From an uncultured Thermoanaerobaculia bacterium (lineage in GTDB: Bacteria; Acidobacteriota; UBA4820; DSQY01), in contig CAZPSH010000006.1 of the NCBI GenBank assembly GCA_964589625.1, forward strand, positions 21,922-85,921: a stretch of DNA of 64,000 nt, read 5' to 3'. Below the pieces are notes generated by a model. It had not been told where the DNA came from. It was given only the letters and a program-made list of their open reading frames with translations, and did not search any database. Shown piece by piece: positions 1 through 23,296 of the stretch (positions are counted from its first letter, which is position 1; each line of letters begins with the position of its first letter). Both the position numbers and the translations under genes were made by a program.

Positions 1-2
1 TC

Positions 3-30
3 TTGACATCGAACGGTAAGGGTCTATATT
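3..30 (+). promoter_or_regulatory. sigma70-like promoter (TTGACA, 16-nt spacer, TATATT) upstream of the kamA leader
   Basis: Near-consensus -35 TTGACA at 3-8 and -10 TATATT at 25-30, read directly; about 265 nt upstream of the kamA start. Confidence 0.4.
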
Positions 31-295
31 TCCCGTAAGTCGTAGCGTGCGCGGCGCATCGTCGTGGGCGGCGGCTGGTCTAGAGGAGGAGGTCGGGAGA
101 CGAGAGTCTTCCGTCTGAGAATGGAAGAGGGAAATGTCAGGAGCCTGCGTGCGCACAGGCACCGAGGGGTTTTGAGCCCCTCGCCGGCGGTGCCGTCCTC
201 GCCTCTTCCGGGCGAGGCTTTTTCTTTGATGGGCCGGAATCCTGGGCTCTGCGCGGCGCTCTTTCGCGGGAACGGATTCCCGCGGGGAGGAGACC
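31..295 (+). promoter_or_regulatory. Long structured 5' leader of the kamA operon; candidate riboswitch or attenuator (possibly lysine-responsive)
   Basis: About 265-nt untranslated leader containing nested hairpins (GGCACCG..CGGTGCC enclosing GAGGGG..CCCCTC) followed by an intrinsic terminator. The 5' segment AGAGGAGGAGG can pair with CCTCGCCTCT, which is also the 5' half of the terminator stem, giving an ON-switch topology. Weak resemblance to L-box motifs (AGAGG.., GAGAnGAGAGU, CACCGAGG). Confidence 0.35.
197..227 (+). terminator. Intrinsic terminator inside the kamA leader (stem CCTCGCC/GGCGAGG, loop TCTTCCG, then CTTTTTCTTT)
   Basis: Perfect 7-bp GC-rich stem plus T-rich tract, 70 nt upstream of the kamA ATG; the position implies transcription attenuation. 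Confidence 0.5.
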
Positions 296-1552
296 ATGCT
301 CGCGAATGAGGCGCCCGCGCGAGGAGCGGGCGGCCGGGCCCAGTTCTTTCCGGAGGCGACCGACGCCGAATGGAACGATTGGCGGTGGCAGTACAGGAAC
401 CGCGTCCGCGACCTGGACGTCCTGTCCCGGCTCCTTCCCCTGACCGCCGCCGAATACAAGCAGCTCAAGCTCCTGGGACCTCGCCTTCACCTCGGGATCC
501 CCCCCTACTACCTCAGCCTCATCGACCCGCAGGACCCGGACGATCCCGTGCGGCGCCAAGCCGTGCCCTCGCCTGCCGAGTTCCTTCCCCAGCATCCCGG
601 ACTCGTGGATCCGCTGGCCGAGGACAACCACATGGCCGTGGAGGGCCTCGTCCACAAGTACCCAGACCGCGCCCTCTTCATCGCCACCAACATGTGTCCC
701 ATGTACTGCCGGCACTGCACGCGGCGCCGCGAATGGGACGAAGGCGAGAAGCCCAAAAACCGCGGTCAGCTCGACCGCATGATCGGGTACATTCGTGAGA
801 CGCCCCAGATCCGGGACGTGATCTTTTCCGGCGGGGATCCCCTCTCCCTGCCCCTTTCGGTGCTCGATTACTGCCTCTCCGAGCTTCGGAAGATCCCCCA
901 CGTGGAGATCATCCGAATCGGGACGCGCTACCCGGTGGTCCTGCCCCAGCGGATCACACAGGACCTAACGAACCTCCTCTCCCGCCACCTCCCCCTCTGG
1001 GTCCACACCCACTTCAACCATCCCAACGAAATCACACCCGAGTCCTCCGAAGCCTGCCGGCGCATCCAGCGCGCGGGCGTTCCCATGAACAACCAGAGCG
1101 TCCTGCTCAGGGGCGTCAACGACAGCGCAGAGACCATGCTCCGGCTGTGCCATGGGCTTCTGCGCATCGGGGTTCGGCCCTACTACCTCTTCCAGTGCGA
1201 CCCGGTCCGGGGAGCCGAGCACCTGCGCACCTCCGTCTGGACGGGCGTCGAGATCCTGGAGAAGATGCGGGGGCACACCTCGGGCTTCGCGGTACCCACC
1301 TTCGTGGTGGACACCGAGGGCGGCGGGAAGATCCCCCTCGGTCCCACGTACCACCTGTATTCCACCGAGGACGCCTTGGTCCTGCGCAACTACGAGGGGC
1401 GGATCTTCCAGTACCGCAACCCCGCACCTCCTCCTCCGAGGAAACAGCGCCGGGCGCCCGGCCTCCCCTTCGAGGAAGCCGACAAGCCCCGCAAGCCGCG
1501 CCTCGTGAAGCGGGACCGGACGGTCGTCCATGCGAATCGGGCTGACGTTTGA
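296..1552 (+). CDS. kamA: L-lysine 2,3-aminomutase (radical SAM, PLP-dependent; KamA/AblA family)
   Basis: 418 aa. Radical-SAM motif CPMYCRHCTRRR. Collinear with clostridial KamA over the whole length (DAEWNDWRWQ.RN, PYYLSLIDP.DP.DPVRRQ, FNHPNEIT, NQSVLLRGVND, PYYLFQCD, VPTFVVD..GGGK); these motifs were recalled from memory, not searched. Confidence 0.9.
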   Translation: MLANEAPARGAGGRAQFFPEATDAEWNDWRWQYRNRVRDLDVLSRLLPLTAAEYKQLKLLGPRLHLGIPPYYLSLIDPQDPDDPVRRQAVPSPAEFLPQHPGLVDPLAEDNHMAVEGLVHKYPDRALFIATNMCPMYCRHCTRRREWDEGEKPKNRGQLDRMIGYIRETPQIRDVIFSGGDPLSLPLSVLDYCLSELRKIPHVEIIRIGTRYPVVLPQRITQDLTNLLSRHLPLWVHTHFNHPNEITPESSEACRRIQRAGVPMNNQSVLLRGVNDSAETMLRLCHGLLRIGVRPYYLFQCDPVRGAEHLRTSVWTGVEILEKMRGHTSGFAVPTFVVDTEGGGKIPLGPTYHLYSTEDALVLRNYEGRIFQYRNPAPPPPRKQRRAPGLPFEEADKPRKPRLVKRDRTVVHANRADV

Positions 1553-2525
1553 TCTCAAGCCGCCGGCGTGCGAACCGGCGGACGGGCAACCCGACGATCT
1601 CTATGAGGAATTCGACCCGCCCGAAACCGTGGGCGCCATCGCCTCCGCCATCGAGTCCCTCGGCCACGAGGTCGTTCCTCTCGGAGGCGGCCGGCCCTTC
1701 CTCGAAAAGGCGCTTGCCGAGCGCCTGGACTTCGTCTTCAACATCGCCGAAGGACGGGGGACGCTCCGCAGCCGCGAGGCCCAGGTACCCTCCGTCCTCG
1801 AGATGCTGGGCATCCCCTACGCCCTGTCCGACCCCCTCACGCTGGCCATAAGCCTGGACAAAGCCCTCACCAAACGCCTCGTGGCCTTCTCCGGCGTGGC
1901 CGTACCGGCGGACCTCCTCGTGCGCCGCGCCGCCGACCTCGACGGCGTGGAGAGGCTCCGATTTCCCTGCATCGCCAAACCGGCGTACGAGGGCTCCTCC
2001 AAGGGAATCCGCGACACGTCTGTGGTCCGGAGCCCGGAGGAGGCTCGCCGCCACGTGGAGGCCACCCTCCGCGTCTACGGGCAGCCCGTCCTTCTGGAGG
2101 AGTTCGTCTCGGGCGATGAGTACACGGTGGGCGTGGTGGGCAACGACCCGCCTCGCGCCATCGGTGCCATGCGCATTCGACCCAAGGCGGGCCCCCACCC
2201 GGACTTTGTATACTCCGTCGAGGTGAAGCGGGATTGGAGAAACCGGGTGGCCTACGACGTGCCGCCTCCCCTGGAGCCTCCACTCCTGATGCGGCTGTAC
2301 TCCGATGCGGTTCTCGCCTTCGAGGCACTGGAGTGCCGCGACGCGGCCCGAGTGGATTTCCGGTTGCGGGACGGGCGCCCCGTCTTCCTGGAAATCAACC
2401 CCCTTCCAGGTCTCTCCCCGATCTACGGAGACCTTCCCATCCTCGCACGGGGGATGGGAATCCCCTACCCGAAGCTGATGGAGGCCATTCTCAACGCGGC
2501 GCTGGCGCGCTGCGGCTTGGCCTGA
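1530..2525 (+). CDS. ATP-grasp ligase, D-alanine--D-alanine ligase family (paralog 1)
   Basis: 331 aa. Ddl-like motifs: FPCIAKPAYEGSSKGI, EEFVSGDEYTVGVVG, ARVDFRLRDGRPVFLEINPLPG, and an N-terminal Ddl-like domain. Start overlaps the kamA 3' end, indicating translational coupling. Confidence 0.75.
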   Translation: MRIGLTFDLKPPACEPADGQPDDLYEEFDPPETVGAIASAIESLGHEVVPLGGGRPFLEKALAERLDFVFNIAEGRGTLRSREAQVPSVLEMLGIPYALSDPLTLAISLDKALTKRLVAFSGVAVPADLLVRRAADLDGVERLRFPCIAKPAYEGSSKGIRDTSVVRSPEEARRHVEATLRVYGQPVLLEEFVSGDEYTVGVVGNDPPRAIGAMRIRPKAGPHPDFVYSVEVKRDWRNRVAYDVPPPLEPPLLMRLYSDAVLAFEALECRDAARVDFRLRDGRPVFLEINPLPGLSPIYGDLPILARGMGIPYPKLMEAILNAALARCGLA

Positions 2526-2554
2526 ACGTTCCTCTCTCACGTGGGAGCGCCGTC

Positions 2555-3673
2555 ATGAGCCAGACTCCCCAGGACCGGTCCCTCTCTCCCCCGGGGCACC
2601 AGGCCGCCCCGAAACCCTCTTCCGCCGAGTGGGAGGGGGAACAGCTCCGGATCTTCACGCTCCGGCGGAAGCCCGTCTTCGTCCTCTACAACGACTTCGA
2701 CAGCGACCTGGACGGAGGCATCGCCGAACGGGCCGTCCTCGAAACCGTCGAGGGGGTGTGCCGCGCCCTCGATGAAGGGGGGCGACAGGTGGAGAGGGTC
2801 CCCCTCGTGCCACCCCTCTCCGGGGCGGCCCGTTCGCTGGAGTCCCTCCCCAAGGGCTCCACCGTCTTCAACCTCTTCGAAGGGTTTGCCGACGACCCCC
2901 CTAGCGAAGTGGCCCTTGCCATCCACCTCCGGACCTTGAGGCTCCGCTCCACGGGATGTCCGCCCCTTTCCCTCCACCTGGGCCTCTACAAGGCCATCAC
3001 CAAGCGCTTTCTCCAGGGGGCGGGCCTTCCCACCGCCCCCTTCCGCGTTTACGCACGCTCCAGCGAGGCCCAGGAAGCTCCCCCCTTTGGTTTTCCCGCC
3101 TTTCTCAAACCCGCCGCCGAGGACGCGAGCCACGGCATCCAGGCCGAGAACCTCGTGCAGGATCAGGAGGACCTTCAAAGGCGGGTGCGCCTTCTCCTGG
3201 AGAGATTCCCTGCGGGAGTCCTGGCGGAACCCTTCCTCCCGGGACGGGAACTGAACTGCTCCGTCGTGGAGACGCCCGACGGAACCGTGGCGCTCCCCCC
3301 CTCGCTCGTAAACTACGAGGAGATGCCCACCTCCCATCCCAAGGTCCTGACCTTCGACGCGAAATGGGCCGAGGAGAGCGAGGCCTATCGGTCAACGCCG
3401 ACGGTCTGCCCGGCCCCGGTGGAACCGGGATTGATCCGCCGCATCCAAGGGCTCGCCCTCGAGGCCTACTCGGCCCTCGGGTGCCGGAGTTACGCCCGCG
3501 TGGATTTCAGGGAGGACCGGGAGGGGAACCTGCAGATCCTCGAGGTGAACCCGAATCCCGATTTCTCCCCGTCCGCCGGGCTGGCCAAGCAGGCCAAGGC
3601 CCACGGTTGGGACTACGCCGAACTCACCCTCCGGGTGCTCGCGGCGGCCGAGGTGAACGAGCCATGGACCTGA
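2555..3673 (+). CDS. ATP-grasp ligase, D-alanine--D-alanine ligase family (paralog 2)
   Basis: About 372 aa from ATG 2555 (GGGAG 8 nt upstream). Motifs FPAFLKPAAEDASHGI, EPFLPGRELNCSVVE, ARVDFREDREGNLQILEVNPNPDFSP. Confidence 0.75.
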   Translation: MSQTPQDRSLSPPGHQAAPKPSSAEWEGEQLRIFTLRRKPVFVLYNDFDSDLDGGIAERAVLETVEGVCRALDEGGRQVERVPLVPPLSGAARSLESLPKGSTVFNLFEGFADDPPSEVALAIHLRTLRLRSTGCPPLSLHLGLYKAITKRFLQGAGLPTAPFRVYARSSEAQEAPPFGFPAFLKPAAEDASHGIQAENLVQDQEDLQRRVRLLLERFPAGVLAEPFLPGRELNCSVVETPDGTVALPPSLVNYEEMPTSHPKVLTFDAKWAEESEAYRSTPTVCPAPVEPGLIRRIQGLALEAYSALGCRSYARVDFREDREGNLQILEVNPNPDFSPSAGLAKQAKAHGWDYAELTLRVLAAAEVNEPWT

Positions 3674-4185
3674 TCCTGAGAGCGCTCCAGCCCGGGGACC
3701 GTCCCCGGATTGCCTCCCTGCTCCGTTCCGCGAAAGTGTTCCGCGAGGACGAGGTGGACGTGGCCCTGGAACTCGTGGACGCCGTCCTGGGCCGGCCCGA
3801 CCACCCCGACTACCGATTCGCCGTCGCCGCCGCCGGCGACGAAGTGGCGGGCTACGCCTGCTGGGGCCCCACCCCCTGCACCCTCGGGACCTTCGACCTC
3901 TACTGGATCGCCGCCTCGCCCGCCTATCAGGGAAAGGGCGTCGGCCGTCTCCTCCTCTCCCACGCCGAAGCCGACATGGCGGCGAGGGGCGCCCGAATCT
4001 GCGTGATCGAGACCTCGTCCCTTCCCCGGTACTCTCCCGCACGGGACTTCTACCTCCGGATGGGCTACCGGGAAGAGGCCCGCCTGACGGAGTTCTACGC
4101 CCCAGGGGACGACAAGATCGTCTTCGTGCGAGACCCCTGCGGTTCCAGGGAACAAAGGGTCCCCCCCCTTGCTCCCGGCCCGTAA
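3664..4185 (+). CDS. GNAT family N-acetyltransferase (possible AblB-like beta-lysine acetyltransferase)
   Basis: 173 aa; acetyl-CoA binding region QGKGVGRLLL. ATG overlaps the stop of the upstream ligase (ATGGACCTGA). Confidence 0.75.
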   Translation: MDLILRALQPGDRPRIASLLRSAKVFREDEVDVALELVDAVLGRPDHPDYRFAVAAAGDEVAGYACWGPTPCTLGTFDLYWIAASPAYQGKGVGRLLLSHAEADMAARGARICVIETSSLPRYSPARDFYLRMGYREEARLTEFYAPGDDKIVFVRDPCGSREQRVPPLAPGP

Positions 4186-4190
4186 AGGTC

Positions 4191-4198
4191 TGTAGAAT
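4191..4198 (+). promoter_or_regulatory. Extended -10 promoter element TGTAGAAT upstream of pal
   Basis: TGnTAGAAT in a short AT-rich gap, 25 nt before the pal RBS GGAGG. Confidence 0.3.
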
Positions 4199-4222
4199 GA
4201 CTGTAATTGAATGGAGGTTGAA

Positions 4223-4780
4223 ATGAGCGCGCAAAAGGCCTTCCGATGGACCGCACTCCTGGCGCTGGGTCTCCTCCTGGTCGCCTTCTTGACGGGCTGC
4301 GCCACAAGGGAGGCCGCCTCCGCGGGTCCCGGCCCGGGAACCACCGTTCCTCCCTCCTCCCCTCCCAGCACATGGACGCCGGAGGCGCCGGCCACCCCCT
4401 CCCTCGACGTGGAAAGCAGCGCCGAGGCCTTCAACCGCCAGGGCGTCCTGGGTCGCATCCATTTCGACACCGACAAGTGGGAGATCCGAGCGGACGCGAG
4501 ACCCGTCCTCAAGGAGAACGCCGCCTGGCTCCTGGCCCACCCCCAATTCCGCGTATCGGTCGAGGGGCACTGCGACGAGAGGAACACCGAGGCGTACAAC
4601 CTCGCCCTGGGCGAACGACGGGCCAACTCCGCCAAGGAGTACCTCGTGGGTCTCGGAGTGCCCGCGGACCGGATACAGACCGTCTCCTACGGCAAGTCCC
4701 GTCCCGCGTGCGAGAGCCACGACGAGGCCTGCTGGCAGCAGAACCGCCGCGACGAGTTCCTTCTCATCGACGTGAAGTAG
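4223..4780 (+). CDS. pal: Peptidoglycan-associated lipoprotein Pal (OmpA-like domain)
   Basis: Lipobox LTGC after a signal peptide; C-terminal OmpA-like domain (HFDTDKWEIR, VEGHCDERNTEAYNLALGERRANSAKEYL). The ORF track starts at 4211, but the RBS favours ATG 4223. Confidence 0.85.
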   Translation: MSAQKAFRWTALLALGLLLVAFLTGCATREAASAGPGPGTTVPPSSPPSTWTPEAPATPSLDVESSAEAFNRQGVLGRIHFDTDKWEIRADARPVLKENAAWLLAHPQFRVSVEGHCDERNTEAYNLALGERRANSAKEYLVGLGVPADRIQTVSYGKSRPACESHDEACWQQNRRDEFLLIDVK

Positions 4781-4786
4781 GCGCCC

Positions 4787-5575
4787 ATGCGCATCCTCCG
4801 GCACGCCCTGGCCGCCGCGGCGGTCTTTGCGTCGGTCTCCGTCCTCGCCGGGACCCGCGAGGACATCCAGAGGCTGGACCAGCAGATGGCCGCCCTGGGC
4901 GCCCGCCTCCAGCAAGTGGAATCCCAGCTTCCACTCTTGCAGAAGGCTCTCCAGGACGTCTCCGCCCGGGTGGAGGCCCTGGGACGGGCCTCCCAGACGG
5001 CTGACATCCGCTCGGACCTGGAGGAGATCAAGAGGCGCCTGGAACAGGTTCAGGAGCAGGTCTCCGCCCTTCAGAGCCGTCAGGAACTCCCGGCCGCCCC
5101 GCCGCTCGTCGCACCGCCGGCGATCTTTGAAGCGCCCCAAGGGGAGACCCCGTCGGGGGCGGCAGCCCTTCTCCCCCTCGCGCAGGAGGCGCCGGGGGCG
5201 CCGGCCGCCCCCGACCTCTACGCCCAGGCCTACGCGGATTACCTCCAGGGCAAGTACGACCTCGCCCTGGAGGAGTTCCGCCGTTTCCTCCAGGCGTTCC
5301 CGGACGAAGGGCGCGCGGGAAACGCTCAGTACTGGATCGGGGAGTGCCTCTACAGCAAGAAGTCCTTCGGAGAGGCCAAGGAGGCCTTCCGGACGGTTCT
5401 TGACCGCTACCCGAAGAGCCCGAAGGTTCTTGCGGCCCGGCTCAAACTCGGGTTTTCCCACCTCGCGCTCGACGAGACGGCCCAGGGGATGACCGCACTC
5501 CGACTCCTGATCCAGTCCGCGCCGGATTCGGACGAGGCCGCCATCGCCCGGGAACGCCTCGCCCGGATCCAGTAG
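4787..5575 (+). CDS. cpoB: Tol-Pal system protein CpoB/YbgF (coiled-coil plus TPR)
   Basis: Signal peptide, coiled-coil region, C-terminal YbgF TPR motif (AQYWIGECLYSKKSFGEAKEAFRTVLDRYPKSPKV..KLG). Confidence 0.8.
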   Translation: MRILRHALAAAAVFASVSVLAGTREDIQRLDQQMAALGARLQQVESQLPLLQKALQDVSARVEALGRASQTADIRSDLEEIKRRLEQVQEQVSALQSRQELPAAPPLVAPPAIFEAPQGETPSGAAALLPLAQEAPGAPAAPDLYAQAYADYLQGKYDLALEEFRRFLQAFPDEGRAGNAQYWIGECLYSKKSFGEAKEAFRTVLDRYPKSPKVLAARLKLGFSHLALDETAQGMTALRLLIQSAPDSDEAAIARERLARIQ

Positions 5576-5887
5576 CCCCTCTCCGCCCTTTCGCGGTCCA
5601 CCCTCTCCGGAGGCGTCCAGACCGTTCCAACCTCGACGTGACCAGGGGCGGTGAATGGGTTCTTAAACCCCGCGTTCTCTTGCTCGGTCACAAGGAGGAC
5701 CCGGCGTGTGACCGCCGGCGTTTCTATGCCCCGGGGGTCCGCCGCCGCACGACGTCCCCTTTTTGCCACCTTCCCCTTGCGCGGCCGGGCGCGGGGCGTC
5801 GTATCCTGGGCGGGTGCCCCGGCCCGGAGCGTGAACTCGACAGGAGGAACCCTGGACCGCTACGAAACGTTCCGCGACGAGGATCTC

Positions 5888-6397
5888 ATGGCCCGCACCG
5901 CGGGGGGGGACCGCGACGCGCTCGGTACCCTCGTACGGCGCCACCAGGTGGCTGTTTACTCCATCGCGCGGAAGTACCTCGGCGACCGGATGGAGGCCGA
6001 GGACGTGGCCCAGGACGTATTCCTGCGGCTGTGGGAGGCGTCACCGCGCTACCGTCCCGAGAAGCCCCTGCCCGCGTACTTGAGGACAATCACCGTGAAC
6101 CTCTGCCTGGACCGGCGTCGCCGGCCTACCCTCTTTTCCATCGTGGACCCCGGAGCCATCCCCGGCTCCCCGGACCCCGAGGCCGGCGTGCGGTCCGCCG
6201 AGCGTGAGAAGGCCCTGATAAGGGCCCTGGCCGTCCTCCCGCCTGCCCAGAGAATGGCCATCGTGCTCTTCCACCTCGAAGGACTTCCCGTCGCGGAGAC
6301 CGCCCGTCTTCTTGAAATCGGCGTCAAGGCCGCCGAATCCCTCCTATCCCGGGGCCGCCGCGCCCTCCGGGAGAGACTGGCGGGGATCTTGGACTGA
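5888..6397 (+). CDS. ECF (extracytoplasmic function) sigma-70 family sigma factor
   Basis: Sigma region 2 (YSIARKYLGDRMEAEDVAQDVFLRLWE) and region 4 (LPPAQRMAIVLFHLEGLPVAETARLLEIGVKAAESLLSRGRRALRE). The start could instead be GTG 5830. Confidence 0.85.
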   Translation: MARTAGGDRDALGTLVRRHQVAVYSIARKYLGDRMEAEDVAQDVFLRLWEASPRYRPEKPLPAYLRTITVNLCLDRRRRPTLFSIVDPGAIPGSPDPEAGVRSAEREKALIRALAVLPPAQRMAIVLFHLEGLPVAETARLLEIGVKAAESLLSRGRRALRERLAGILD

Positions 6398-6458
6398 CGC
6401 GCTCACCGACCGAAGGATTTCCCTCTCCGGTACGTTATGCCTGTTCTAAGGAGGCCCC

Positions 6459-6917
6459 GTGAGGTGCGCTGAAGCCCTGAAGAAGATCGACCGGACGGCT
6501 CTCGGAGGACCCCACCCGACAAGGTCGGACTTCGCGGAGCACCTGGCTTCCTGCTCTGGCTGCGCCCGGGAGTTCCGGCGGCAGGCGGCCTTGCTGGACC
6601 TCCTCGGCCACAGCGATCCGCCGTGGGAGATCCCCGACCTAGCTCCCGCCGTCCTACGACGCCTCCCTCCGCGCCGGACCTTCCGCGACGGCCTGCGGCG
6701 GGTCGCCGCGGCGGCCCTGGCTCTGGCCGCCCTCGGCCTGGGGTACTTCCTGGGCAGGGCTTGGGCGCCCGCCGAGCCGCCCTCCACACCCTCCACGGCC
6801 ATGATGGCCGCCTACGGACAGGCACTCGCCGATGAGCCTTTCGGATCCCTCGAAAGGGCCTATTCGGGCCTCCGGCCCGGGGTCCAGACCGCCTCCGACA
6901 AAAGGAGTGGTCCATGA
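6459..6917 (+). CDS. Anti-sigma factor, zinc-finger (HxxxCxxC) type with a single transmembrane helix
   Basis: GTG start with RBS AAGGAGG; motif HLASCSGC; central hydrophobic helix (AAAALALAALGLGYFLG). Immediately downstream of the ECF sigma gene. Confidence 0.7.
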   Translation: MRCAEALKKIDRTALGGPHPTRSDFAEHLASCSGCAREFRRQAALLDLLGHSDPPWEIPDLAPAVLRRLPPRRTFRDGLRRVAAAALALAALGLGYFLGRAWAPAEPPSTPSTAMMAAYGQALADEPFGSLERAYSGLRPGVQTASDKRSGP

Positions 6918-7366
6918 GACACCGGTGGGTTACGCTTGCGCTTCTGGCCTCCCTCGCCCTCAACGTGGGGCTCCTCGTTGCCCTGATCCAGAGGGCTTCG
7001 CATCATCCCCACCCCATGTCCCCGCCCGATCTGGGTCTCTCCCCGGCCCTCCAGGCCCGGTGGGACGAAAACTTCGAAGGCTTTCGCGTCCGGATGGACG
7101 CGCTGAGGGCGGAAATGCGGGCGGAGCGCGAGAAGATGCTCGCCCTGCTGGCCTCGGATGACTGCACGCCGGAGGCCCTCTCCGACCACCGGGCCCGGCT
7201 CCAAGACCTGACGGATCGCCTGTTCCGGACCGTCACGGCGCATCTCCTCGAACAAAAGGAGCTTCTCGACCCGGACCAGCGCGAGCGGTTTTTCGCGGCC
7301 CTGCGCAACCACATGCCCGACTCGGTGGGCATGTCCCCCCATTCCCCAAAGGAGAAACGACCGTGA
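6914..7366 (+). CDS. Periplasmic Spy/CpxP/ZraP-like protein (heavy-metal / envelope-stress family)
   Basis: Signal peptide, His-rich stretch (SHHPHPMSP), LxxxQ-type helical repeats (LDPDQRERFFAAL). ATG overlaps the anti-sigma stop. Confidence 0.6.
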   Translation: MRHRWVTLALLASLALNVGLLVALIQRASHHPHPMSPPDLGLSPALQARWDENFEGFRVRMDALRAEMRAEREKMLALLASDDCTPEALSDHRARLQDLTDRLFRTVTAHLLEQKELLDPDQRERFFAALRNHMPDSVGMSPHSPKEKRP

Positions 7367-8757
7367 AGCACCGCCAACTCTTCCTGCTCTGTCTCCTGCT
7401 GGCACCGGCCCTCCGCACCGGAGCGGAAGGGGAGGGACCCCCGGCGGGTCCCACCGGCTCTCCGCTCACCTTGCGTGAGTGCGTCGGGATCGCGGTCAGC
7501 CACAACCCGGACGTCGGCGCCATGCTTCATGCCGGGCGGGCCTCCATGGCACGCATCGGACAGAGCCGGGCCTCCTACTGGCCCACCCTCACGGCCACCG
7601 GGGGGTTGTCCCGATCCTACGCCGAAGCCCAGCCTGGCGCCTTAGGCCGCTCCGACGCCGCCACGAGTTCCAGCGGAATCCTCTCTACCCAAGTTACGCT
7701 CCTCGACGGGGGTCAGAGAAGGACGGAGGTCCAAGGGACCGAGGCAACGTACCAGGCCGCCGACTGGAGGTTCAAGGCCACCGTCCAGGACTTGGCCGTG
7801 GAGGTGGCCACGGCCTACTACAATCTTCAGGGCTTCCTTTGGGACCTCGAGGTGGCGCGGGAGATTCTGTCCCAAAGCACGGCCCACCTGGAGATGGCCC
7901 AGGCCAGAGAATCCGTGGGCCTCGCGCCGAGAGCCGACGTGCTCCGGGCGGCCACCGCCGAGGCGGACGCTCGACTGGGCGTGGTCCAGGCCGCCAGTGA
8001 CGTGTCTCGGGGAATGTCGGCCCTGGCGATCCTCATGGGGCATCCCGCGGACGCGCCCATCGAGATCGCGGGCGTCTCCCGGGAAGGGGGCCTGCCCCCC
8101 GTCCCGGACTGGGCCGAGGGACGGGCCCGGGCGCTGTCCGCCATCCCCGAAGTGAGGGCGGCGCGGGCGTCAGAGGAGGCCTATCTCTTCACGTGGAAGG
8201 CCGCCCGGTTCTCCACGCGGCCGACGGTCACCGCCGACGGGTCGGTGGGGCTTCTGGACGCGGGGCGCTGGCCGGACAGAGACACGTGGAGCGTGGGCCT
8301 CTCGGTTCGGATTCCACTCTTCACGGGCTTCTCCAAATCCTGGAGCGTGGCGGGGGCCAGGGCCGGTTACGAAGGCGCCAGGGAGGAAACCCGAAGCGCC
8401 CTTCTTGCCGCGGAAAAGGCTGCTTTCACGGCGCGGATTGGGATTGAGGAGTCCCTCCAGGCGGTGGGCGCCGCGGAGGCTTACCTGAGAAGCGCGGAAG
8501 AAAACGCCCAGGTGGCCGAGGGGCAGTACCGGGAGGGCCTTGGCTCCATGCTCGACCTGGTGGACGCCACCGCCTCCCTGCAGAGCGCTAAGCTGCGCTT
8601 GGTGAGGGCGCGCCTCCAGGCGCTCCTCTCCGACCTGCAGTGGGGCCGCGCCACGGGGATCGATCTCCTGGAGGGCATCACCCTGCCTTCCACTGCGCTC
8701 ACGCTGTCACGCAAAACCGGCTTGGCCGGCACAACCACGGGGGACCCAACGCCATGA
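7363..8757 (+). CDS. TolC-family outer membrane efflux protein
   Basis: 464 aa, signal peptide, the two repeated halves typical of OEP/TolC; GTG start overlaps the upstream stop. Confidence 0.85.
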   Translation: MKHRQLFLLCLLLAPALRTGAEGEGPPAGPTGSPLTLRECVGIAVSHNPDVGAMLHAGRASMARIGQSRASYWPTLTATGGLSRSYAEAQPGALGRSDAATSSSGILSTQVTLLDGGQRRTEVQGTEATYQAADWRFKATVQDLAVEVATAYYNLQGFLWDLEVAREILSQSTAHLEMAQARESVGLAPRADVLRAATAEADARLGVVQAASDVSRGMSALAILMGHPADAPIEIAGVSREGGLPPVPDWAEGRARALSAIPEVRAARASEEAYLFTWKAARFSTRPTVTADGSVGLLDAGRWPDRDTWSVGLSVRIPLFTGFSKSWSVAGARAGYEGAREETRSALLAAEKAAFTARIGIEESLQAVGAAEAYLRSAEENAQVAEGQYREGLGSMLDLVDATASLQSAKLRLVRARLQALLSDLQWGRATGIDLLEGITLPSTALTLSRKTGLAGTTTGDPTP

Positions 8758-9836
8758 GGCCCAGAACCCTTCGAAGCACTCTCGTATTCACCCTCCTCCT
8801 TGTTGTCACCCTCGTGGGCGCATGCAAGGAAGCCGGGGGGGGCAAGACCCCCCAGGGCAGCATGGTTCCCGTCAAGATCATGGACCTGCCCGCCCAGGTC
8901 ATCGCCACGGGGACCGTTACTCCGAGAGTCGGGGCCCAGGTCAAAGTGGGCCCGCGCGTCTCGGGCCGGCTCGAGCGCCTCTTCGTGCAGGTGGGAGACC
9001 GCGTGACCCGGGGACAGATCCTCGCGATCCTGGAGCAGCGGGACCTCCAGGCCAACGTGGACAAGGCCAGGGCGGCACTGGCTTCGGCCGAGGCCACGGC
9101 CACCTACTCCGAATCCAATTACGTCCGGCTCAAGGAGCTCCTCCCCAAGGGCTACGTCTCCCAGGACGCCGTGGACGCCGCCTTGCGGAATTTCGAGCAG
9201 GCCCGGGCCGACGCGAAGAACGCGAAGGCCCAACTCGATTTCGCCAAGGTCCAGCTCTCCTACGCCACCGTCACGTCGCCCATCGACGGAATTATCGGAT
9301 CCGTCTCCACCCAGGAGGGGGAGACGGTGGCGGCGAGCCTGAGCGCGCCCACCTTCGTAACGGTCATCGACCTGAGCCGCCTGGAGGTGGACGCCTATGT
9401 GGACGAGGTGGACATCGGCCGGGTCAAGGTCGGACAGGCCGCGACCTTCACCGTGGACGCATTCCCGGACAAGACCTTCAACGCGGTGGTGGAGGCCATC
9501 TACCCGCAAGCCGTCATCCAGGACAACGTCGTCAACTACGCCGTCGTCCTCGGCATTCAGGACGCCTTCGAGGGACTCCTCCGGCCCCAGATGACCGCCT
9601 CCGTCTCCATCACGCTGGACACCACCAAGGGTGCCTTGGTCGTGCCCGTCCGCGCCATCAAGCACGAGGGCGGGAAGGCCTTTGTCCAGATCCCCCAGGG
9701 GAAGGGTCTCACGGCGCGCCCGGTGACCCTTGGACGGGAGTCGGGCGACTACGTCCAGGTCAAGGCCGGGCTGTCCGAGGGCGACAAGGTCTTCGTGCCG
9801 GGCGCCGCCCGAACCAACGACACCGGCGGGATGTGA
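8754..9836 (+). CDS. Efflux membrane fusion protein (MacA/HlyD family)
   Basis: Lipoprotein-like N-terminus (LVGAC), coiled-coil hairpin, beta-barrel and MP domains; ATG overlaps the TolC-like stop. Confidence 0.85.
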   Translation: MRPRTLRSTLVFTLLLVVTLVGACKEAGGGKTPQGSMVPVKIMDLPAQVIATGTVTPRVGAQVKVGPRVSGRLERLFVQVGDRVTRGQILAILEQRDLQANVDKARAALASAEATATYSESNYVRLKELLPKGYVSQDAVDAALRNFEQARADAKNAKAQLDFAKVQLSYATVTSPIDGIIGSVSTQEGETVAASLSAPTFVTVIDLSRLEVDAYVDEVDIGRVKVGQAATFTVDAFPDKTFNAVVEAIYPQAVIQDNVVNYAVVLGIQDAFEGLLRPQMTASVSITLDTTKGALVVPVRAIKHEGGKAFVQIPQGKGLTARPVTLGRESGDYVQVKAGLSEGDKVFVPGAARTNDTGGM

Positions 9837-9846
9837 GGCGGAGGCC

Positions 9847-10524
9847 ATGATCGAACTGGGCGGAATCGCCAAGACCTACCTCACGGGCGGCGTCGAGACT
9901 CCCGTCCTGCACGGGATCGACCTGACCATCGAAGAAGGGGAGTTCGTGGCCCTCATGGGCCCATCGGGGACCGGAAAGAGCACGCTGATGAACATCCTCG
10001 GTCTTCTGGACCGGCCCTCGGCAGGCACATACCGCTTCGGAGGCCAGGACCTTACAACCCTCGGGGACGACGCCCTGTCCGCCATTCGGAACCGTCGAAT
10101 CGGCTTCGTCTTCCAACTGTTTCACCTCCTGCCCAGGGTCAACGTCCTCCAGAACGTGCTCCTACCCTTTCTCTACACCGAGCCCTACCCCCCGGACGCC
10201 CGCGACCGCGCCTTGGGCCTCCTCAAACGGGTGGGCCTGGAGGACCGTGTCGGCTTCAAGCCCAACGCCCTGTCCGGCGGCCAACAGCAGCGGGTGGCCA
10301 TCGCACGGGCTCTTGTCAACGAGCCCGCCCTTATCCTGGCGGACGAACCCACGGGGAACCTGGACTCGGTGGCGACCCAGGAGATCCTCGCCATCTTCGA
10401 CCGAATCCACAGGGAGGGGCGAACCATCGTCATGGTCACCCACGAACCCGAAGTGGCCTCCCACGCTTCGCGCGTGATTACCCTAAAGGACGGACGCGTC
10501 GCGAGCGACGTCCGGCCGGCCTGA
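9847..10524 (+). CDS. ABC transporter ATP-binding protein (MacB/LolD-like)
   Basis: Walker A GPSGTGKST, signature LSGGQQQRVAIARAL, Walker B ILADEPTGNLD. Confidence 0.9.
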   Translation: MIELGGIAKTYLTGGVETPVLHGIDLTIEEGEFVALMGPSGTGKSTLMNILGLLDRPSAGTYRFGGQDLTTLGDDALSAIRNRRIGFVFQLFHLLPRVNVLQNVLLPFLYTEPYPPDARDRALGLLKRVGLEDRVGFKPNALSGGQQQRVAIARALVNEPALILADEPTGNLDSVATQEILAIFDRIHREGRTIVMVTHEPEVASHASRVITLKDGRVASDVRPA

Positions 10525-10536
10525 GGTGCGCCTTCC

Positions 10537-11823
10537 ATGAACCGCGCCGAGACCGCCCAGCACCTTTCCTTGAGTTCGGGCCGCGCCCGGCCGGCCCTTT
10601 CCCCCTTCCGCATCCTACGGCTGGCGCGCCACGCCGCGGGCGCCCTCTGGTCCCAGAAGGGCAAGGCCTTCCTCATGCTCCTCGGGACCGCCGTCGGCAT
10701 CATGCTCCTCACGGCCGTCGTGGGCCTGAGCGCCGGCGTGGAGCAGAGAATCTCCCAGATCATGGCCACCTTCGGTCCCCGCTCGATCATGGTCTTCGCC
10801 GGCGGCGGGAGGATGATGGGCCCCCCGGGGAGGTCCGCTTCCTCTTCCACCCTCCGCCTCGAGGACGCCGTCGCGGTCCGGGAGCGGTTCTCCGAGGAGG
10901 CCGTGACCTGCGCCGGGCTCTTCCAGAGGGATGTCCCCATCAAGGCCGGAGAGGCGGAAGCACAGACCGGCGTGACCGCCGCCGACCCGGCCTACTGCCA
11001 GACCTTCGATTGGTACGTGGCAACGGGGGAGCCCCTCGACGACGACGACGAGAGGACCCTGGCGAGGCGCTGCGTCCTGGGAACCACCGTGGCTCGGAAC
11101 CTCTTCGGTGACGAGGATCCGGTGGGCAAGCGGATCCTGGTCAACCGGGTCCAGTTCACGGTGAAGGGCGTTCTCCAGTCCCGGGGAACGAATTCCATGG
11201 GGTTCGATATGGACGACCGCATCTGGGTCCCCCTTTCGACGGGGATGCGGCGCGTCTTCCGGGTGGACGCCATCCGGTTCATCCGCCTCAGGGTCCGGGA
11301 AGGCTACGAGGTCCCGGCCGTTGTGCAGGGCGTGACGGCGATCCTTCGACAACGGCACCACGTCCGGGAGGAAGAGGAGGACGACTTCCGGATGCGCACC
11401 CCGGAGTTCATCGCCCAGCGTGTCCGGAGCATGGCTCGGACCACCCAACTCGTGGGGGGCGCTCTGACCCTGGTGGCGCTCCTCGTCGGGGGAGTGGTCC
11501 TGATGAACATCCTCCTTCTGTCCGTCAGCGAGCGCGTGCCGGAGATCGGGCTCAAGCGGGCCCTGGGCGCGTCGAGGCGAGACGTCTTTTCCGAATTCCT
11601 GGTGGAATCGGTGATCGTGAGCCTCCTGGGCATGGCCTTGGGGGTCCTTCTTGGACTTATCCCCGTGCTGGCCATCCCCAAGTTGTTCCCCATGATGCCC
11701 ATGGCCGTGAGTTGGAAGACCTTCGCCTACTCGGCCCTCTTCTCCACACTGGTGGGACTCGTCTTCGGCGTCCAACCCGCGCGCCGGGCCGCCAAGCTCG
11801 ACCCCGTGGAGGCCCTAAGATGA
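10537..11823 (+). CDS. ABC transporter permease, FtsX/MacB family (permease 1)
   Basis: 428 aa: N-terminal TM helix, large periplasmic domain, C-terminal FtsX 3-TM bundle. Confidence 0.85.
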   Translation: MNRAETAQHLSLSSGRARPALSPFRILRLARHAAGALWSQKGKAFLMLLGTAVGIMLLTAVVGLSAGVEQRISQIMATFGPRSIMVFAGGGRMMGPPGRSASSSTLRLEDAVAVRERFSEEAVTCAGLFQRDVPIKAGEAEAQTGVTAADPAYCQTFDWYVATGEPLDDDDERTLARRCVLGTTVARNLFGDEDPVGKRILVNRVQFTVKGVLQSRGTNSMGFDMDDRIWVPLSTGMRRVFRVDAIRFIRLRVREGYEVPAVVQGVTAILRQRHHVREEEEDDFRMRTPEFIAQRVRSMARTTQLVGGALTLVALLVGGVVLMNILLLSVSERVPEIGLKRALGASRRDVFSEFLVESVIVSLLGMALGVLLGLIPVLAIPKLFPMMPMAVSWKTFAYSALFSTLVGLVFGVQPARRAAKLDPVEALR

Positions 11824-11912
11824 TTTCGGATTTTCGATTTTGGATTTCGGATTGGAGGCGGGAAGTGGGGTTGGTAGCATCCATCCCAAATCCCCAATCC
11901 CAAATCCCAAAT
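11822..11912. repeat. Heptamer-repeat element: four copies of GATTTCG (GATTTCG GATTTTC GATTTTG GATTTCG) and about 30 nt downstream the inverted counterpart (CCAAATC CCCAATC CCAAATC CCAAAT)
   Basis: Read directly, starting at the stop codon of permease 1 and ending at the RBS of permease 2. The arms are imperfectly complementary (potential hairpin). The same heptamer array recurs at 41938-41970. Confidence 0.6.
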
Positions 11913-11932
11913 GTCTCCGGAGGGCTCCCTGG

Positions 11933-13156
11933 ATGAATCTGGCCCGCACGCTCGTCATCTCCTGGGACGTCCTCATGGGCCACAAGTTGCGGACATTGCT
12001 GTCCAGCACGGGCATCGCCATCGGCGTGGCCGCCGTCGTCATCATGGTGGGGGCTGGAAAGGCGGCGGAGGAGGAGGTCGTCGGAAAGGTCCGCAGCATG
12101 GGCACCAACCTCCTCGTGGTCCAGGCCGGACGGTTCCAGAACCTGGGCGGACGGACCCGCCAGGTCGCCACCTTCACGACCCTCACCCAAAGAGACGTCC
12201 AGGCCCTCTCGCGCCGGATCACCGGAATCGAGCGCATCGCCGGGGTGTACCAGAGGAGCGCCGTGGTCCGGTACAAAGGAATCCGCACTCGAACCGACGT
12301 GGCGGGGGCCGAGCCTGCCCTCTTCCAGATCCGGGGCATCTCCGCCGCGAGCGGCCGCCTCTTCACCGACCTGGAACAGAGATCTTTGGCCCGTGTGGCG
12401 GTCGTGGGCCCCACGGTCGCGTCCAACGTCTTTTCCGGCGCGGACCCCGTGGGCAGATCCGTGGAGATCAACAGGATCCTTTTCAAGGTCGTGGGCGTCA
12501 CCTCCCCGCGGGGCCAGGACCTCAGCGGGGACGACCAGGACGACGTGGTGTACGTCCCGCTCTCCACCGCCATGGTGCGCGTCTTCCACGTCACCTACCT
12601 CCAGGGCATCCTGATCCAGGCCGAAAGCGCCGAAGCCATGGCCTCCCTTCCCGACCAGATCGCTCCCGTGCTCCGGAAGACCCACAGGCTCAAGCCGGGC
12701 AAGGAGAACGACTTCACGATCCAGGACCAGGCCCAGCTGATGCGGTCCGAGCAGGACACCAGCCAGGCTTTTACGGTCCTCGTGGGGAGCGTGGCTGGCG
12801 TCTCCCTTTTCACGGGAGGCGTCGGCATCCTCGCCGTCATGCTGATCTCTATCCGGGAAAGGACCCGGGAGATCGGCCTTCGGAGGGCCCTGGGAGGCCG
12901 GAGGAGGGACATCCTGGGGCAGTTTCTCCTGGAGGCGGGCAGCCTGGCCGCCATGGGAGGACTCTCGGGGGTCCTCGTGGGCCTGGGGGGCACCTGGCTC
13001 ACCGTGCACCTCATGCGATGGCCCCTCGTTTGGCCCTGGAGCGCCACCGCTTTTGCCCTCGGGCTTTCGGTGACCATGGGAGTCGCCTTCGGCCTCTATC
13101 CCGCCATGAAGGCCGCCCGGCTGGAACCGGCCGTGGCCCTCCATGCCGCCGGCTGA
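11933..13156 (+). CDS. ABC transporter permease, FtsX/MacB family (permease 2)
   Basis: About 407 aa from ATG 11933; same architecture as permease 1 (paralog). Confidence 0.85.
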   Translation: MNLARTLVISWDVLMGHKLRTLLSSTGIAIGVAAVVIMVGAGKAAEEEVVGKVRSMGTNLLVVQAGRFQNLGGRTRQVATFTTLTQRDVQALSRRITGIERIAGVYQRSAVVRYKGIRTRTDVAGAEPALFQIRGISAASGRLFTDLEQRSLARVAVVGPTVASNVFSGADPVGRSVEINRILFKVVGVTSPRGQDLSGDDQDDVVYVPLSTAMVRVFHVTYLQGILIQAESAEAMASLPDQIAPVLRKTHRLKPGKENDFTIQDQAQLMRSEQDTSQAFTVLVGSVAGVSLFTGGVGILAVMLISIRERTREIGLRRALGGRRRDILGQFLLEAGSLAAMGGLSGVLVGLGGTWLTVHLMRWPLVWPWSATAFALGLSVTMGVAFGLYPAMKAARLEPAVALHAAG

Positions 13157-13328
13157 CCCCGAAGGGGGACCGGCCCATGGAAAGAGGCCCCATGGATGGT
13201 GGGGGATCGACTTCGTCCATGGCAGCCGCAACGTCCACCTCGGCACCCCACCCGAGGGCTCGTCCGAGCTTCCAGCCCGTGTGGGCTCCGCAGGACTCCA
13301 CCGTTCCCCACACCCAGAGGAGACCATC

Positions 13329-13856
13329 ATGAAATCGCTTCAAGCCCGGCTCCTTCCTTTCGTCCTGGCCTGCCTCGCTCCCCTCCTCGCCTGCCGAGAG
13401 GCCGGGGGAACCCGCGTCGCGGTCATCGACATGGAGCGAATCGCCTCCGACTCCGCCGCGGCCAAGGCCGCCTTCGCCGAAGTGCAGGCTCTTTCGGAGA
13501 CAGCCCAGGGACAATTGTCTGGGCTCGCCCGCGAGATCCAAAGGGCCGAAGAGGCCGGGCGCATCCGGCCCGCCGATCTTGAGGCCATGAAGAGGCGGTG
13601 GATCGCCTTGAGGCAGGAGGCCGAATCCCAAGTGGGAGCCCGCCGCGAGGCGGCCGCAGCGGAGATGGAGGACGTCCTTCGCCGCGCCCTTGAGGAACTC
13701 GCTTCCGAGAACGGATGGGACTTGGCTCTCCGGAAGCAGGACGGAGTCGCCTGGTCCAAGAGGGACCTCGACGTTACGGCCCCCGTCGCGAGAAGGATGG
13801 ACGAGATCTGGGGCCGAACCCACAAGGACCGAGCCAGAGGGCCAGAGAACCCGTGA
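13329..13856 (+). CDS. Periplasmic chaperone Skp/OmpH family
   Basis: Signal peptide plus coiled-coil Ala/Glu/Arg-rich helical body of about 175 aa; weak family-level call. Confidence 0.55.
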   Translation: MKSLQARLLPFVLACLAPLLACREAGGTRVAVIDMERIASDSAAAKAAFAEVQALSETAQGQLSGLAREIQRAEEAGRIRPADLEAMKRRWIALRQEAESQVGARREAAAAEMEDVLRRALEELASENGWDLALRKQDGVAWSKRDLDVTAPVARRMDEIWGRTHKDRARGPENP

Positions 13857-13917
13857 AACCGGGAGGTCATGGGCTCCGGCGCTCCTGGGCGCTCGGATTC
13901 GTGGGCTCGCACCTCTC

Positions 13918-13941
13918 GGCGGAGAGGGGGGGATTCGAACC
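13918..13941 (-). repeat. Duplicate of the 3'-terminal 24 nt of tRNA-Ser (att-like direct repeat or pseudo-tRNA fragment)
   Basis: GGCGGAGAGGGGGGGATTCGAACC is identical to the 3' end of the tRNA-Ser gene 118 bp away, then diverges; it cannot fold into a cloverleaf. Confidence 0.6.
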
Positions 13942-14058
13942 TACAAGGACCCTGCGTTTCAAGGCCGCCTACGGTTCCCGGGGTGGGGGGTCAGCGGAGC
14001 GACCGAAGGGAGCGGAGCGCATAGGGGGGAGGACGGGACGGCCTTCCCCCTTGCTTCT

Positions 14059-14152
<94 letters not shown>

Positions 14153-14303
14153 GCGGAAAGGGTGGCCGCTTCTATTATAGGCGGGACCGAGCCTGCGCGT
14201 CAACGAAGAGAGGCTCTTGCGGCCCCTCCCGGTCGGTGGGATCCAGAGAACGCGAAGGGGGCGGGCCGAAGCCCGCCCCCTATGGGTGGCGACGAAGAGC
14301 AGG

Positions 14304-18830
<4,527 letters not shown>

Positions 18831-18842
18831 ACCCCCTTAGGG

Positions 18843-23153
<4,311 letters not shown>

Positions 23154-23296
23154 CAGGCCGTCTCCTCAAGTCCAAACCGAACGGGTCCGACATCGCGGCC
23201 CTTTACGGGCGGGGTCCGCCCCGCGCTCGGAAAAGGCACACGGGCAGGGCACGCCGGGATGGCGCCCTGCCCAGAATGGACGTGGCCGGCGGAACG

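Follow-up and report, generated by a model that had tools for sequence, protein, structure and literature searches.

AblA and AblB make the osmolyte N-epsilon-acetyl-beta-lysine in methanogens and some bacteria. In the PylB/PylC system, lysine is rearranged by a radical S-adenosylmethionine (SAM) enzyme to a non-proteinogenic diamino acid, the carboxylate of which is joined to an amine by a Ddl-like ATP-grasp ligase. Among the ATP-grasp enzymes that make small peptides, RizA and RizB work one after the other, and the substrate that carnosine synthase activates is a beta-amino acid. In the Ngg/AsnO system, a GNAT and an ATP-grasp enzyme, which are fused in Ngg, make the N-acetylated dipeptide solute N-acetylglutaminylglutamine amide (NAGGN). 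Here, we describe a four-gene cassette consisting of kamA, two genes for Ddl-fold ATP-grasp ligases (AG1 and AG2), and a GNAT gene, located at positions 296 to 4185 of a 64,000-nucleotide (nt) stretch of contig CAZPSH010000006.1 from an uncultured Thermoanaerobaculia bacterium (Acidobacteriota). We refer to this whole 64-kb stretch as the window. Hundreds of species, which belong to at least six phyla, carry the cassette, and on balance we favor the view that its products ligate beta-lysine, at the expense of ATP, into an N-acetylated small amide or peptide.

The ablA-ablB pair is the established beta-lysine osmolyte pair (Pflueger et al., 2003, PMC201229). Like AblA/AblB, the cassette combines a KamA-family aminomutase that has a lysine-type active site with a GNAT in the same operon; here, however, what constantly accompanies kamA is a pair of ATP-grasp ligases, and the GNAT is optional and is not of the AblB type. 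The logic of PylB/PylC, a lysine mutase followed by a Ddl-like ligase, recurs in the cassette, but PylB is not a KamA-family pyridoxal 5′-phosphate (PLP) aminomutase, the cassette has no PylD, and PylC was not among the listed PDB matches of AG1 and AG2. RizA/RizB, BacD/YwfE, TabS, and carnosine synthase offer a precedent for ATP-grasp synthesis of di- and tripeptides without a ribosome or a nonribosomal peptide synthetase. These ligases are only distant in sequence (the AG1 profile matched the L-amino-acid ligase 3VOT with an E value of 1e-10, versus 1e-40 to 1e-24 for Ddl entries in the PDB), although a similar function is possible. Ngg/AsnO resembles the cassette in that AG2-GNAT fusions exist among the cassette's relatives. 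It differs in that the cassette lacks an amidotransferase, obtains its amino acid from kamA, and has two Ddl-branch ligases. Of the family assignments considered, only membership in the KamA family held, and the cassette proteins fell outside AblA, AblB, Ddl, the L-amino-acid ligases, and EpmB. The cassette appears to be a hybrid of AblA/AblB, of tandem peptide ligases (e.g., RizA/RizB), and of the logic seen in PylB/PylC and, as judged from its sequence, a member of none of them. The searchable full-text literature contained no description of the cassette; an earlier in silico mention in amidoligase surveys is possible.

Gene linkage and fusions across phyla

All four genes lie on the + strand. 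kamA (296 to 1552; 418 amino acids) encodes a radical-SAM/PLP lysine 2,3-aminomutase; AG1 (1530 to 2525; 331 amino acids) encodes a Ddl-fold ATP-grasp ligase that is not a Ddl orthologue; AG2 (2555 to 3673; 372 amino acids) encodes a second Ddl-fold ATP-grasp ligase; and the last gene (3664 to 4185; 173 amino acids) encodes an N-acetyltransferase of the 2R7H family that is not AblB. The AG1 ATG at position 1530 falls 23 nt inside the 3′ end of kamA, and direct reading of the sequence places the overlap of the GNAT start and the AG2 stop in ATGGACCTGA (3664 to 3673). AG2 sits in an open reading frame (ORF) that spans 2234 to 3673 on the + strand, and its start is most likely the ATG at 2555, 7 nt 3′ of GGGAG. 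Since GC content at third codon positions is 0.76 to 0.86 for all four ORFs in a genome with 67% GC, all four are real genes. A preliminary description of this DNA, made from the letters and the ORFs, had listed four same-strand genes with overlapping or closely spaced starts, and its coordinates agree with the ORF calls. The motifs that it cited (CPMYCRHCTRRR; FPCIAKPAYEGSSKGI / FPAFLKPAAEDASHGI; EEFVSGDEY / EPFLPGREL; ARVDF..LEINPLPG / ARVDF..LEVNPNPD) are all present in the translations. Its four gene identities are correct, and the two middle genes are indeed paralogues (31% identity between AG1 and AG2; E = 3e-26).

AG1 has thousands of homologues, with relatives in at least 549 species (one genome per species). 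Among the best 80 loci, 53 were from Chloroflexota, mostly Dehalococcoidia (several labeled Dehalococcoidaceae) plus SAR202; 21 were from Planctomycetota (Gemmatales and Singulisphaera), 3 were from Acidobacteriota, and 3 were from other groups. We scored ORFs from all six frames of these loci against the four proteins of the window and counted cassette genes over the 64 loci that had enough flanking sequence. Next to AG1, we found kamA in 59 of 64 loci, AG2 in 60, and a GNAT gene in 43, and the exceptions to full linkage were nearly all from Planctomycetota. Because the same gene set recurs in many phyla, the association is far beyond chance. The order kamA-AG1-AG2-GNAT is found in most lineages. 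In SAR202 the order is DUF3109-AG1-AG2-GNAT-kamA, and in Fermentibacteria and Syntrophales it is AG1-AG2-GNAT-kamA; a Gemmatimonadales locus has AG1-AG2-GNAT followed by a radical-SAM gene that is interrupted by the end of the contig.

An exhaustive search with AG2 returned 644 representatives (50% identity clusters) at an E value of ≤1e-30. The best 150 of these 644 included 12 AG1-AG2 fusions (e.g., P0245, P0259, and P0304), 15 AG2-GNAT fusions (e.g., P0243, P0244, and P0256), and 5 more tandem ATP-grasp proteins that were scored as AG1-AG1. At the locus level, L096 and L097 provided one AG1-AG2 fusion followed by a GNAT gene and one AG2-GNAT fusion following kamA-AG1. The survival of linkage through rearrangement and the existence of fusions together constitute strong evidence that the four proteins act in one pathway. 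Two expectations of the preliminary description, that the genes work together and that the cassette is conserved in other genomes, are thus borne out by the cross-phylum conservation in the 64-locus count, the shuffled gene order, and the fusion proteins. We concluded that the pathway is real and uncharacterized.

Active-site residues of the cassette enzymes

KamA matched PDB entry 2A5H, the lysine 2,3-aminomutase of Clostridium subterminale, with an E value of 8e-132 over 365 residues and 50 to 60% identity. It passed the NCBIfam model for the KamA subfamily (TIGR00238; 355 bits; cutoff, 199 bits). Cassette KamAs from three other phyla (Planctomycetota, Chloroflexota, and Fermentibacteria) were scored with NCBIfam in the same way and reached 277 to 350 bits for TIGR00238. 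The best-scoring NCBIfam model for the window KamA was the AblA equivalog TIGR03820, with 471 bits, below its cutoff of 525.4 bits; scores in the three other phyla were 433 to 495 bits, all below the cutoff. EpmB was the weakest KamA-family model (258 bits; cutoff, 369 bits), and KamA was also below the glutamate and arginine aminomutase equivalog cutoffs, as were the KamAs of the three other phyla.

We then compared individual residues over 72 cassette KamAs. The cysteines of the CxxxCxxC motif (C134-x3-C138-x2-C141; CPMYCRHC), which align with Cys125, Cys129, and Cys132 of 2A5H, are invariant, as are K345, which aligns with the PLP-binding Lys337, and R143, D302, and D339, which align with Arg134, Asp293, and Asp330. 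We take Arg134 to bind the carboxylate of lysine and Asp293 and Asp330 to bind its epsilon-ammonium group. In glutamate 2,3-aminomutases, Lys and Asn replace the two lysine-specific Asp residues. By this comparison, the signature of the cassette KamAs is that of a lysine enzyme and not that of a glutamate enzyme. The Zn site between the subunits of clostridial 2A5H is formed by Cys268, Cys375, Cys377, and Cys380. Across the 72 cassette KamAs, the equivalent of Cys268 was Ser, Asp, Thr, or Asn and never Cys, and the C-terminal tail had 0 to 2 Cys residues and no CxCxxC; all four Zn-ligand cysteines are missing from the window KamA. Residues ~376 to 418 of the window KamA (window positions 1420 to 1552) form a proline-rich, basic, low-complexity tail (PAPPPPRKQRRAPG...KPRKPRLVKRDR), which stands where the clostridial lysine 2,3-aminomutase has its Zn-binding C-terminal domain. 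The missing Zn site marks a distinct KamA subfamily and does not exclude activity.

Both ligases belong to the Ddl branch of the ATP-grasp enzymes. They matched Pfam Dala_Dala_lig_C (PF07478; E = 3e-29 for AG1 and 5e-27 for AG2), Ddl entries were by far the best PDB matches of each, and identity to Ddl was 22 to 28%. An AlphaFold (AF2) model of AG1 had a predicted local distance difference test score of 89.6 and gave Foldseek template modeling scores of 0.75 to 0.78 to Ddl structures, its best PDB matches by fold, at 22 to 27% identity. However, AG1 and AG2 were below every NCBIfam Ddl or Van cutoff, with scores of 151 and 126 bits for the Ddl model NF002378 (cutoff, 243 bits) and 126 and 109 bits for TIGR01205 (cutoff, 245.65 bits), respectively. 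Public records annotate ligases of the AG1/AG2 type as D-Ala-D-Ala ligase.

For a residue-level comparison, 86 AG1 and 75 AG2 sequences were aligned with Escherichia coli DdlB by using MAFFT. The catalytic set (K97, K144, E180, E187, K215, R255, D257, E270, and N272 in DdlB numbering) is kept in both ligases, being invariant in the 86 AG1 sequences and nearly invariant in AG2. The D-Ala site of DdlB, which we take to consist of the Glu15/Ser150/Tyr216 triad together with Gly276, Ser281, and Leu282, is changed. In AG1, Leu282 is replaced by an invariant Asp, and the MAFFT alignment leaves a gap opposite Tyr216, for which there is no equivalent (by eye, an Arg). In AG2, Asp replaces Gly149, Ala replaces Ser150, Trp replaces Tyr216, Asp replaces Gly276, and Gly replaces Leu282. 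His63 is replaced by Glu in both ligases. AG1 and AG2 thus share with Ddl/VanA the three-domain ATP-grasp fold, the Dala_Dala_lig_C domain, and all catalytic residues for ATP, Mg, and the acyl phosphate. They differ in the Ser150/Tyr216 pair, Gly276, Ser281, and Leu282, in the added acidic residues, and in forming a co-evolving pair that is linked to kamA and has no mur/dcw context. Because the catalytic residues are kept and the D-Ala site is changed, we concluded that AG1 and AG2 are competent ligases with remodeled, more acidic pockets; the acidic residues that replace D-Ala-binding ones would fit di-cationic substrates. The scores and the altered specificity residues also show that neither ligase is a bona fide Ddl; with the conservation of the cassette, both computational outcomes that the preliminary description had named as refuting it failed to appear. 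No third ddl-like gene was found in the window.

The GNAT matched Acetyltransf_7 and Acetyltransf_1 in Pfam. In NCBIfam, matches at an E value of ≤0.01 were to RimI (the best, at 46.6 bits, below the cutoff of 86.4 bits) and to generic models, with no AblB model among them. The closest structure was PDB entry 2R7H (E = 7e-36), an uncharacterized entry named “putative D-alanine N-acetyltransferase.” The protein has a QGKGVG acetyl-coenzyme A loop, the two Gly residues of which are at least 90% conserved.

In 15 loci, drawn from two phyla, the gene that comes directly after the cassette encodes a 583-amino-acid GNAT-HDAC fusion protein (L058 10118 to 11869, L079 11111 to 12859, and 13 further loci). 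Fourteen of these loci are from Dehalococcoidales, and the other is from Singulisphaera sp. PoT, in which the fusion replaces the small GNAT; the window itself has no such gene. The fusion matched no NCBIfam family. Its HDAC domain was closest to the acetylpolyamine amidohydrolases 6PHR, 3MEN, and 3Q9B (E = 3e-74 to 3e-66), and this resemblance suggests that the substrate is a small N-acetylated alkyl-amine and that the acetylation is reversible. The combination is reminiscent of SpeG/SSAT with acetylpolyamine amidohydrolase, the deacetylase domains being similar; in contrast to that polyamine acetylation/deacetylation system, GNAT-HDAC is only an accessory to the cassette.

Proposed pathway and rival explanations

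Gene identities, residue-level catalytic competence, linkage, and fusions are shown above; the scheme that follows goes further and infers what AG1, AG2, and the GNAT act on, in which order they do so, and what the product is and does. KamA, in which the substrate and catalytic residues are in place, would isomerize free L-lysine to beta-lysine. AG1 and AG2 would each form one amide bond via an acyl-phosphate intermediate, with one bond probably using the carboxylate of beta-lysine and the other using a beta-lysine amine or a second building block. The GNAT, in places fused to AG2, would acetylate the remaining free amine, and the acetylpolyamine amidohydrolase-type deacetylase would reverse the acetylation in some lineages. 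As a small molecule of the cytoplasm, the product would most likely serve as a compatible solute or else as a polyamine-like cation with a charge tuned by acetylation. In the Acidobacteriota clade, expression would hinge on conditional read-through of the leader RNA terminator. The AblA/AblB and NAGGN precedents are in line with a role as a compatible solute; a polyamine-like role fits the acetylpolyamine-type deacetylase, the acidic pockets, the Planctomycetota cassettes without a GNAT, and the nonsaline source names. Our confidence in any specific product is much lower than that in the ligation of beta-lysine as such. Only tentatively, and with less than even confidence, do we suggest that the cassette makes an undescribed class of beta-lysine metabolite, a short beta-lysyl peptide or amide that would act as a polyamine surrogate or compatible solute and the charge of which would be set by acetylation and deacetylation.

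Several points weigh against the proposed ligation and N-acetylation of beta-lysine. Beta-lysine is only a putative substrate of the ligases. Most Planctomycetota cassettes are without a GNAT gene, and in a few loci AG1 stands without kamA or AG2; hence, acetylation is not universal and there are exceptions to the linkage. The record titles name sources such as groundwater, peat, sediment, and the deep sea; these are not especially saline, and this weakens the osmolyte version. In the ligase comparison, the DdlB reference was matched to PDB entry 1IOV by length (306 residues), and the N-terminal alignment to Ddl, including Glu15, is unreliable. The equivalent of Asp282 is not kept in the distant AG1-like proteins of Fermentibacteria and Gemmatimonadales, and the putative acidic pocket signature is clade specific.

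We consider it unlikely that the cassette modifies a protein or ribosomal component by placing beta-lysine, with acetylation, on elongation factor P (EF-P) or another target in the manner of EpmA/EpmB, RimK, or RimI. ATP-grasp enzymes such as RimK modify proteins, RimI is the best named family for the GNAT, efp lies directly after the cassette in Singulisphaera sp. PoT, and rpsO lies after the cassette in L003. Against this, the Singulisphaera efp gene (L058 11966 to 12529, − strand) is the only adjacent one in ~90 loci, and the loop of its product (TPGNLRA) has Asn at its tip (PGN), where E. coli EF-P has the modified Lys. EF-P modification was rejected as a general explanation on these grounds. 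Moreover, EpmB is the weakest of the KamA-family models, no EpmA-like LysRS paralogue was found in any cassette locus, no small ORF is conserved, and the linked deacetylase is of the acetylpolyamine type that acts on small molecules. A ribosomally synthesized and posttranslationally modified peptide or a carrier peptide was considered separately as a substrate; clustering of ORFs of 20 to 90 amino acids around 85 cassettes yielded only shadow ORFs and no conserved small ORF, and this candidate was rejected.

A role in the cell envelope, either in making an alternative D-amino-acid dipeptide or in adding beta-lysine to peptidoglycan precursors, is quite unlikely. Such a role would be in keeping with Ddl being by far the closest fold and sequence family of the ligases, with the name under which 2R7H was deposited, and with the pal gene and the gene for a CpoB-like TPR protein that follow the cassette in the window and in L001. 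However, this pal neighborhood is confined to the Acidobacteriota clade, the D-Ala specificity residues are lost, and no mur or dcw genes lie beside any cassette examined. The distribution of the cassette also argues against an envelope role, with Chloroflexota, mostly Dehalococcoidia and several of them labeled Dehalococcoidaceae, accounting for 53 of the 80 best loci; to our knowledge, cultured Dehalococcoidia/Dehalococcoidaceae lack peptidoglycan.

Of similarly low probability is a specialized pathway of the antibiotic type, in which the cassette would be a minimal cluster for a bioactive beta-lysine compound like negamycin or streptothricin. The negamycin cluster combines kamA with ATP-grasp genes, and ATP-grasp ligases build bacilysin, rhizocticin, and tabtoxin. 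The cassette, in contrast, has three or four genes and no consistent exporter, resistance, or tailoring gene, and its context is that of the core chromosome, including dnaE, pal, and the suggested rpoBC and ribosomal protein genes. It is also vertically widespread throughout orders such as Dehalococcoidales and Gemmatales, whereas antibiotic clusters are typically patchy.

It is very unlikely that this is an AblA/AblB-type pathway that makes just N-epsilon-acetyl-beta-lysine, with the ATP-grasp genes as bystander paralogues of the peptidoglycan Ddl. The preliminary description had drawn the AblA/AblB analogy; the part that stood is that KamA and a GNAT occur together in one operon and that AblA is the best NCBIfam model for KamA, and the part that did not is the identity of the two enzymes, with KamA below the AblA cutoff in the window and three other phyla and the GNAT without an AblB match. 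AG1 and AG2 are poor candidates for bystanders: they stay with kamA across phyla and gene orders, fuse to one another and to the GNAT, score below the Ddl cutoffs, and lack the D-Ala residues. The dispensable member of the cassette is the GNAT and not the ligases.

Finally, catabolic lysine fermentation or lysine salvage, judged unlikely in the preliminary description as well, is extremely improbable: KamA catalyzes the first step of clostridial lysine fermentation and is close in sequence to the C. subterminale enzyme, but no kamDE, kdd, kce, or kal gene was found among the ~24 longest of the ~43 likely genes of the window that were scanned or among conserved neighbors of the cassette, two ATP-consuming ligases would be senseless in fermentation, and the cassette also occurs in SAR202 and Gemmatales, which are taken as aerobic.

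Leader RNA, genomic neighborhood, and implications

A sigma-70-type promoter, TTGACA-16-TATATT, lies at positions 3 to 30 on the + strand, with 11 of 12 matches to the consensus. It is the sole such site in positions 1 to 4400, compared to 0.1 in shuffled sequences, and neither hexamer varies among 5 related Acidobacteriota loci. A pattern based on this promoter matched 6 metagenome contigs: 4 have kamA ~290 nt downstream, the fifth, which is truncated by the contig end, is almost the same as the L001 leader, and the sixth is not related. Transcription would start a few bases past the −10 hexamer, which ends at position 30, giving a predicted leader of ~260 nt. An intrinsic terminator, CCTCGCC-TCTTC-GGGCGAGG then CTTTTTCTTT, is located at 197 to 227 on the + strand (hairpin at 197 to 217, followed by the T run). 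The leader with its own terminator ahead of kamA that the preliminary description had reported is real.

Alignment and a covariance model identified positions 31 to 227 (+ strand) as a conserved structured 5′ leader RNA. The consensus structure includes a 5′ stem-loop, the terminator, and a conserved hairpin at 266 to 283 (+ strand), which lies just 5′ of the Shine-Dalgarno sequence GGGGAGGAG (284 to 292). In the leader alignment (A4; 8 sequences), 86.5% of cells were paired, versus 39 to 51% in controls with slid partners, and 15 pairs had compensatory changes, versus 4 to 7 in the controls; the consensus structure was derived from the same 8-sequence alignment that was used to score pairing. 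The terminator (helix 7) was 91% paired across the 8 sequences, and the hairpin at 266 to 283 (helix 8) was 87.5% paired, each with two compensatory pairs. The minimum free energy z-score of the leader was modest (−1.88). The conserved structured part is ~195 nt long and has invariant single-stranded blocks, namely, ATGGA and, in most sequences, GCAACC.

The covariance model, R1, matched window positions 31 to 225 at 128 bits. Its motif was found solely upstream of kamA, in 10 Acidobacteriota loci of one clade, and the search detected no second copy in the window and none in other phyla; an 18.6-bit match in L004 was rejected as gapped and at chance level. Relatives of the window leader are at L006 4615 to 4914, L091 3036 to 3332, L008 2005 to 2305, L007 6470 to 6760, and L001 6476 to 6775 and in L093, L094, and L095. 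A search of the window leader against Rfam 15 returned no family at an E value of ≤1, and searches with the leaders of two relatives gave chance-level matches only. The scan of positions 1 to 4400 revealed no second promoter-like site between the terminator and kamA, and hence transcription of kamA would have to read through the terminator. The operon probably depends on regulated terminator read-through, and the leader is a candidate riboswitch or attenuator.

A leader peptide was also considered. The conserved ATGGA could open a short ORF (M-D/E-S/A-E-Q-P-P) in five relatives, but neither the frame nor the peptide is kept in the window, L006, or L091, and this candidate was rejected; the ATGGA frame runs into kamA in L001 but is out of frame in the window. 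Because frame and peptide are not conserved, we judged the conservation of ATGGA to be at the RNA level. In other lineages, a small winged-helix (MarR/HTH_24-like) regulator gene, found in 21 loci, is divergent upstream of kamA in most of them (e.g., Dehalococcoidales L045 12335 to 12676, − strand), and in Dehalococcoidales this regulator may play the part that the leader RNA plays in Acidobacteriota.

AG1 is 93% identical to a protein from a metagenome-assembled genome (MAG), and the window is part of the core chromosome of an uncultured Acidobacteriota bacterium. Downstream of the cassette, positions 4211 to 13156 contain genes for a Pal-like OmpA lipoprotein and a CpoB/YbgF-like TPR protein, for an extracytoplasmic function (ECF) sigma factor, a TolC-like protein, and a membrane fusion protein (these three read by eye), and for two MacB-type permeases (Pfam). 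Short ORFs follow the ECF sigma factor ORF, and one of them is possibly an anti-sigma factor gene. L001 has the same downstream genes with Pfam domains, and the block is thus syntenic in the Acidobacteriota clade. On the − strand, positions 14304 to 28031 hold a run that size and order alone suggest to be rpoC (1,508 amino acids), rpoB (1,436 amino acids), rplL, rplJ, rplA, rplK, nusG, and tuf, from which the core-chromosome assignment would follow. dnaE, accA, guaA, and mfd are also in the window.

Among the neighbors of the cassettes, we found no universal extra partner gene. Lineage-specific neighbors include the winged-helix regulator gene as well as genes for MarC (12 loci), DUF3109, an amino acid permease, and M20/M28 peptidases. 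A DUF3109/Rv0495c-like protein (PF11307) heads the cassette in SAR202 (L004/L005 and L020; L004 683 to 1300 and L020 4720 to 5379) and in the Chloroflexota MAG locus L063 (7375 to 8001), and it takes the place of the GNAT after AG2 in L002 (10066 to 10581) and L021 (10030 to 10671). In L003, the lysine biosynthesis genes dapB, asd, and dapA (13133 to 16051) follow the cassette at a distance of a few kb, and the ORF after the GNAT gene in L096 (2770 to 3177) resembles a class I/II aminotransferase by eye. The genes of L003 and the aminotransferase of L096 may point to a connection with the supply of lysine.

The cassette is small and widespread, is easy and cheap to test, and is likely to reveal a new metabolite. 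If its products do ligate beta-lysine into an N-acetylated small amide or peptide, a new pathway for beta-amino-acid peptides or amides would be present in major uncultivated lineages, Ddl-branch ATP-grasp chemistry would extend to beta-lysine or other cationic substrates, a systematic misannotation of ligases as Ddl would be corrected, and PDB entry 2R7H would gain a function. Should the more tentative suggestion of an undescribed beta-lysine metabolite class also be true, its producers would include Dehalococcoidia, SAR202, Gemmatales, Acidobacteriota, and Gemmatimonadota, among others, these phyla would hold hundreds of wrong “D-alanine--D-alanine ligase” annotations, and the Acidobacteriota leader would represent a new class of riboswitch with lysine, beta-lysine, or the product as its ligand. 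The leader RNA is in any case a separate, small lead for riboswitch discovery. The acetylpolyamine-type deacetylase suggests a regulated cationic metabolite, one that may bear on osmotic or polyamine homeostasis.

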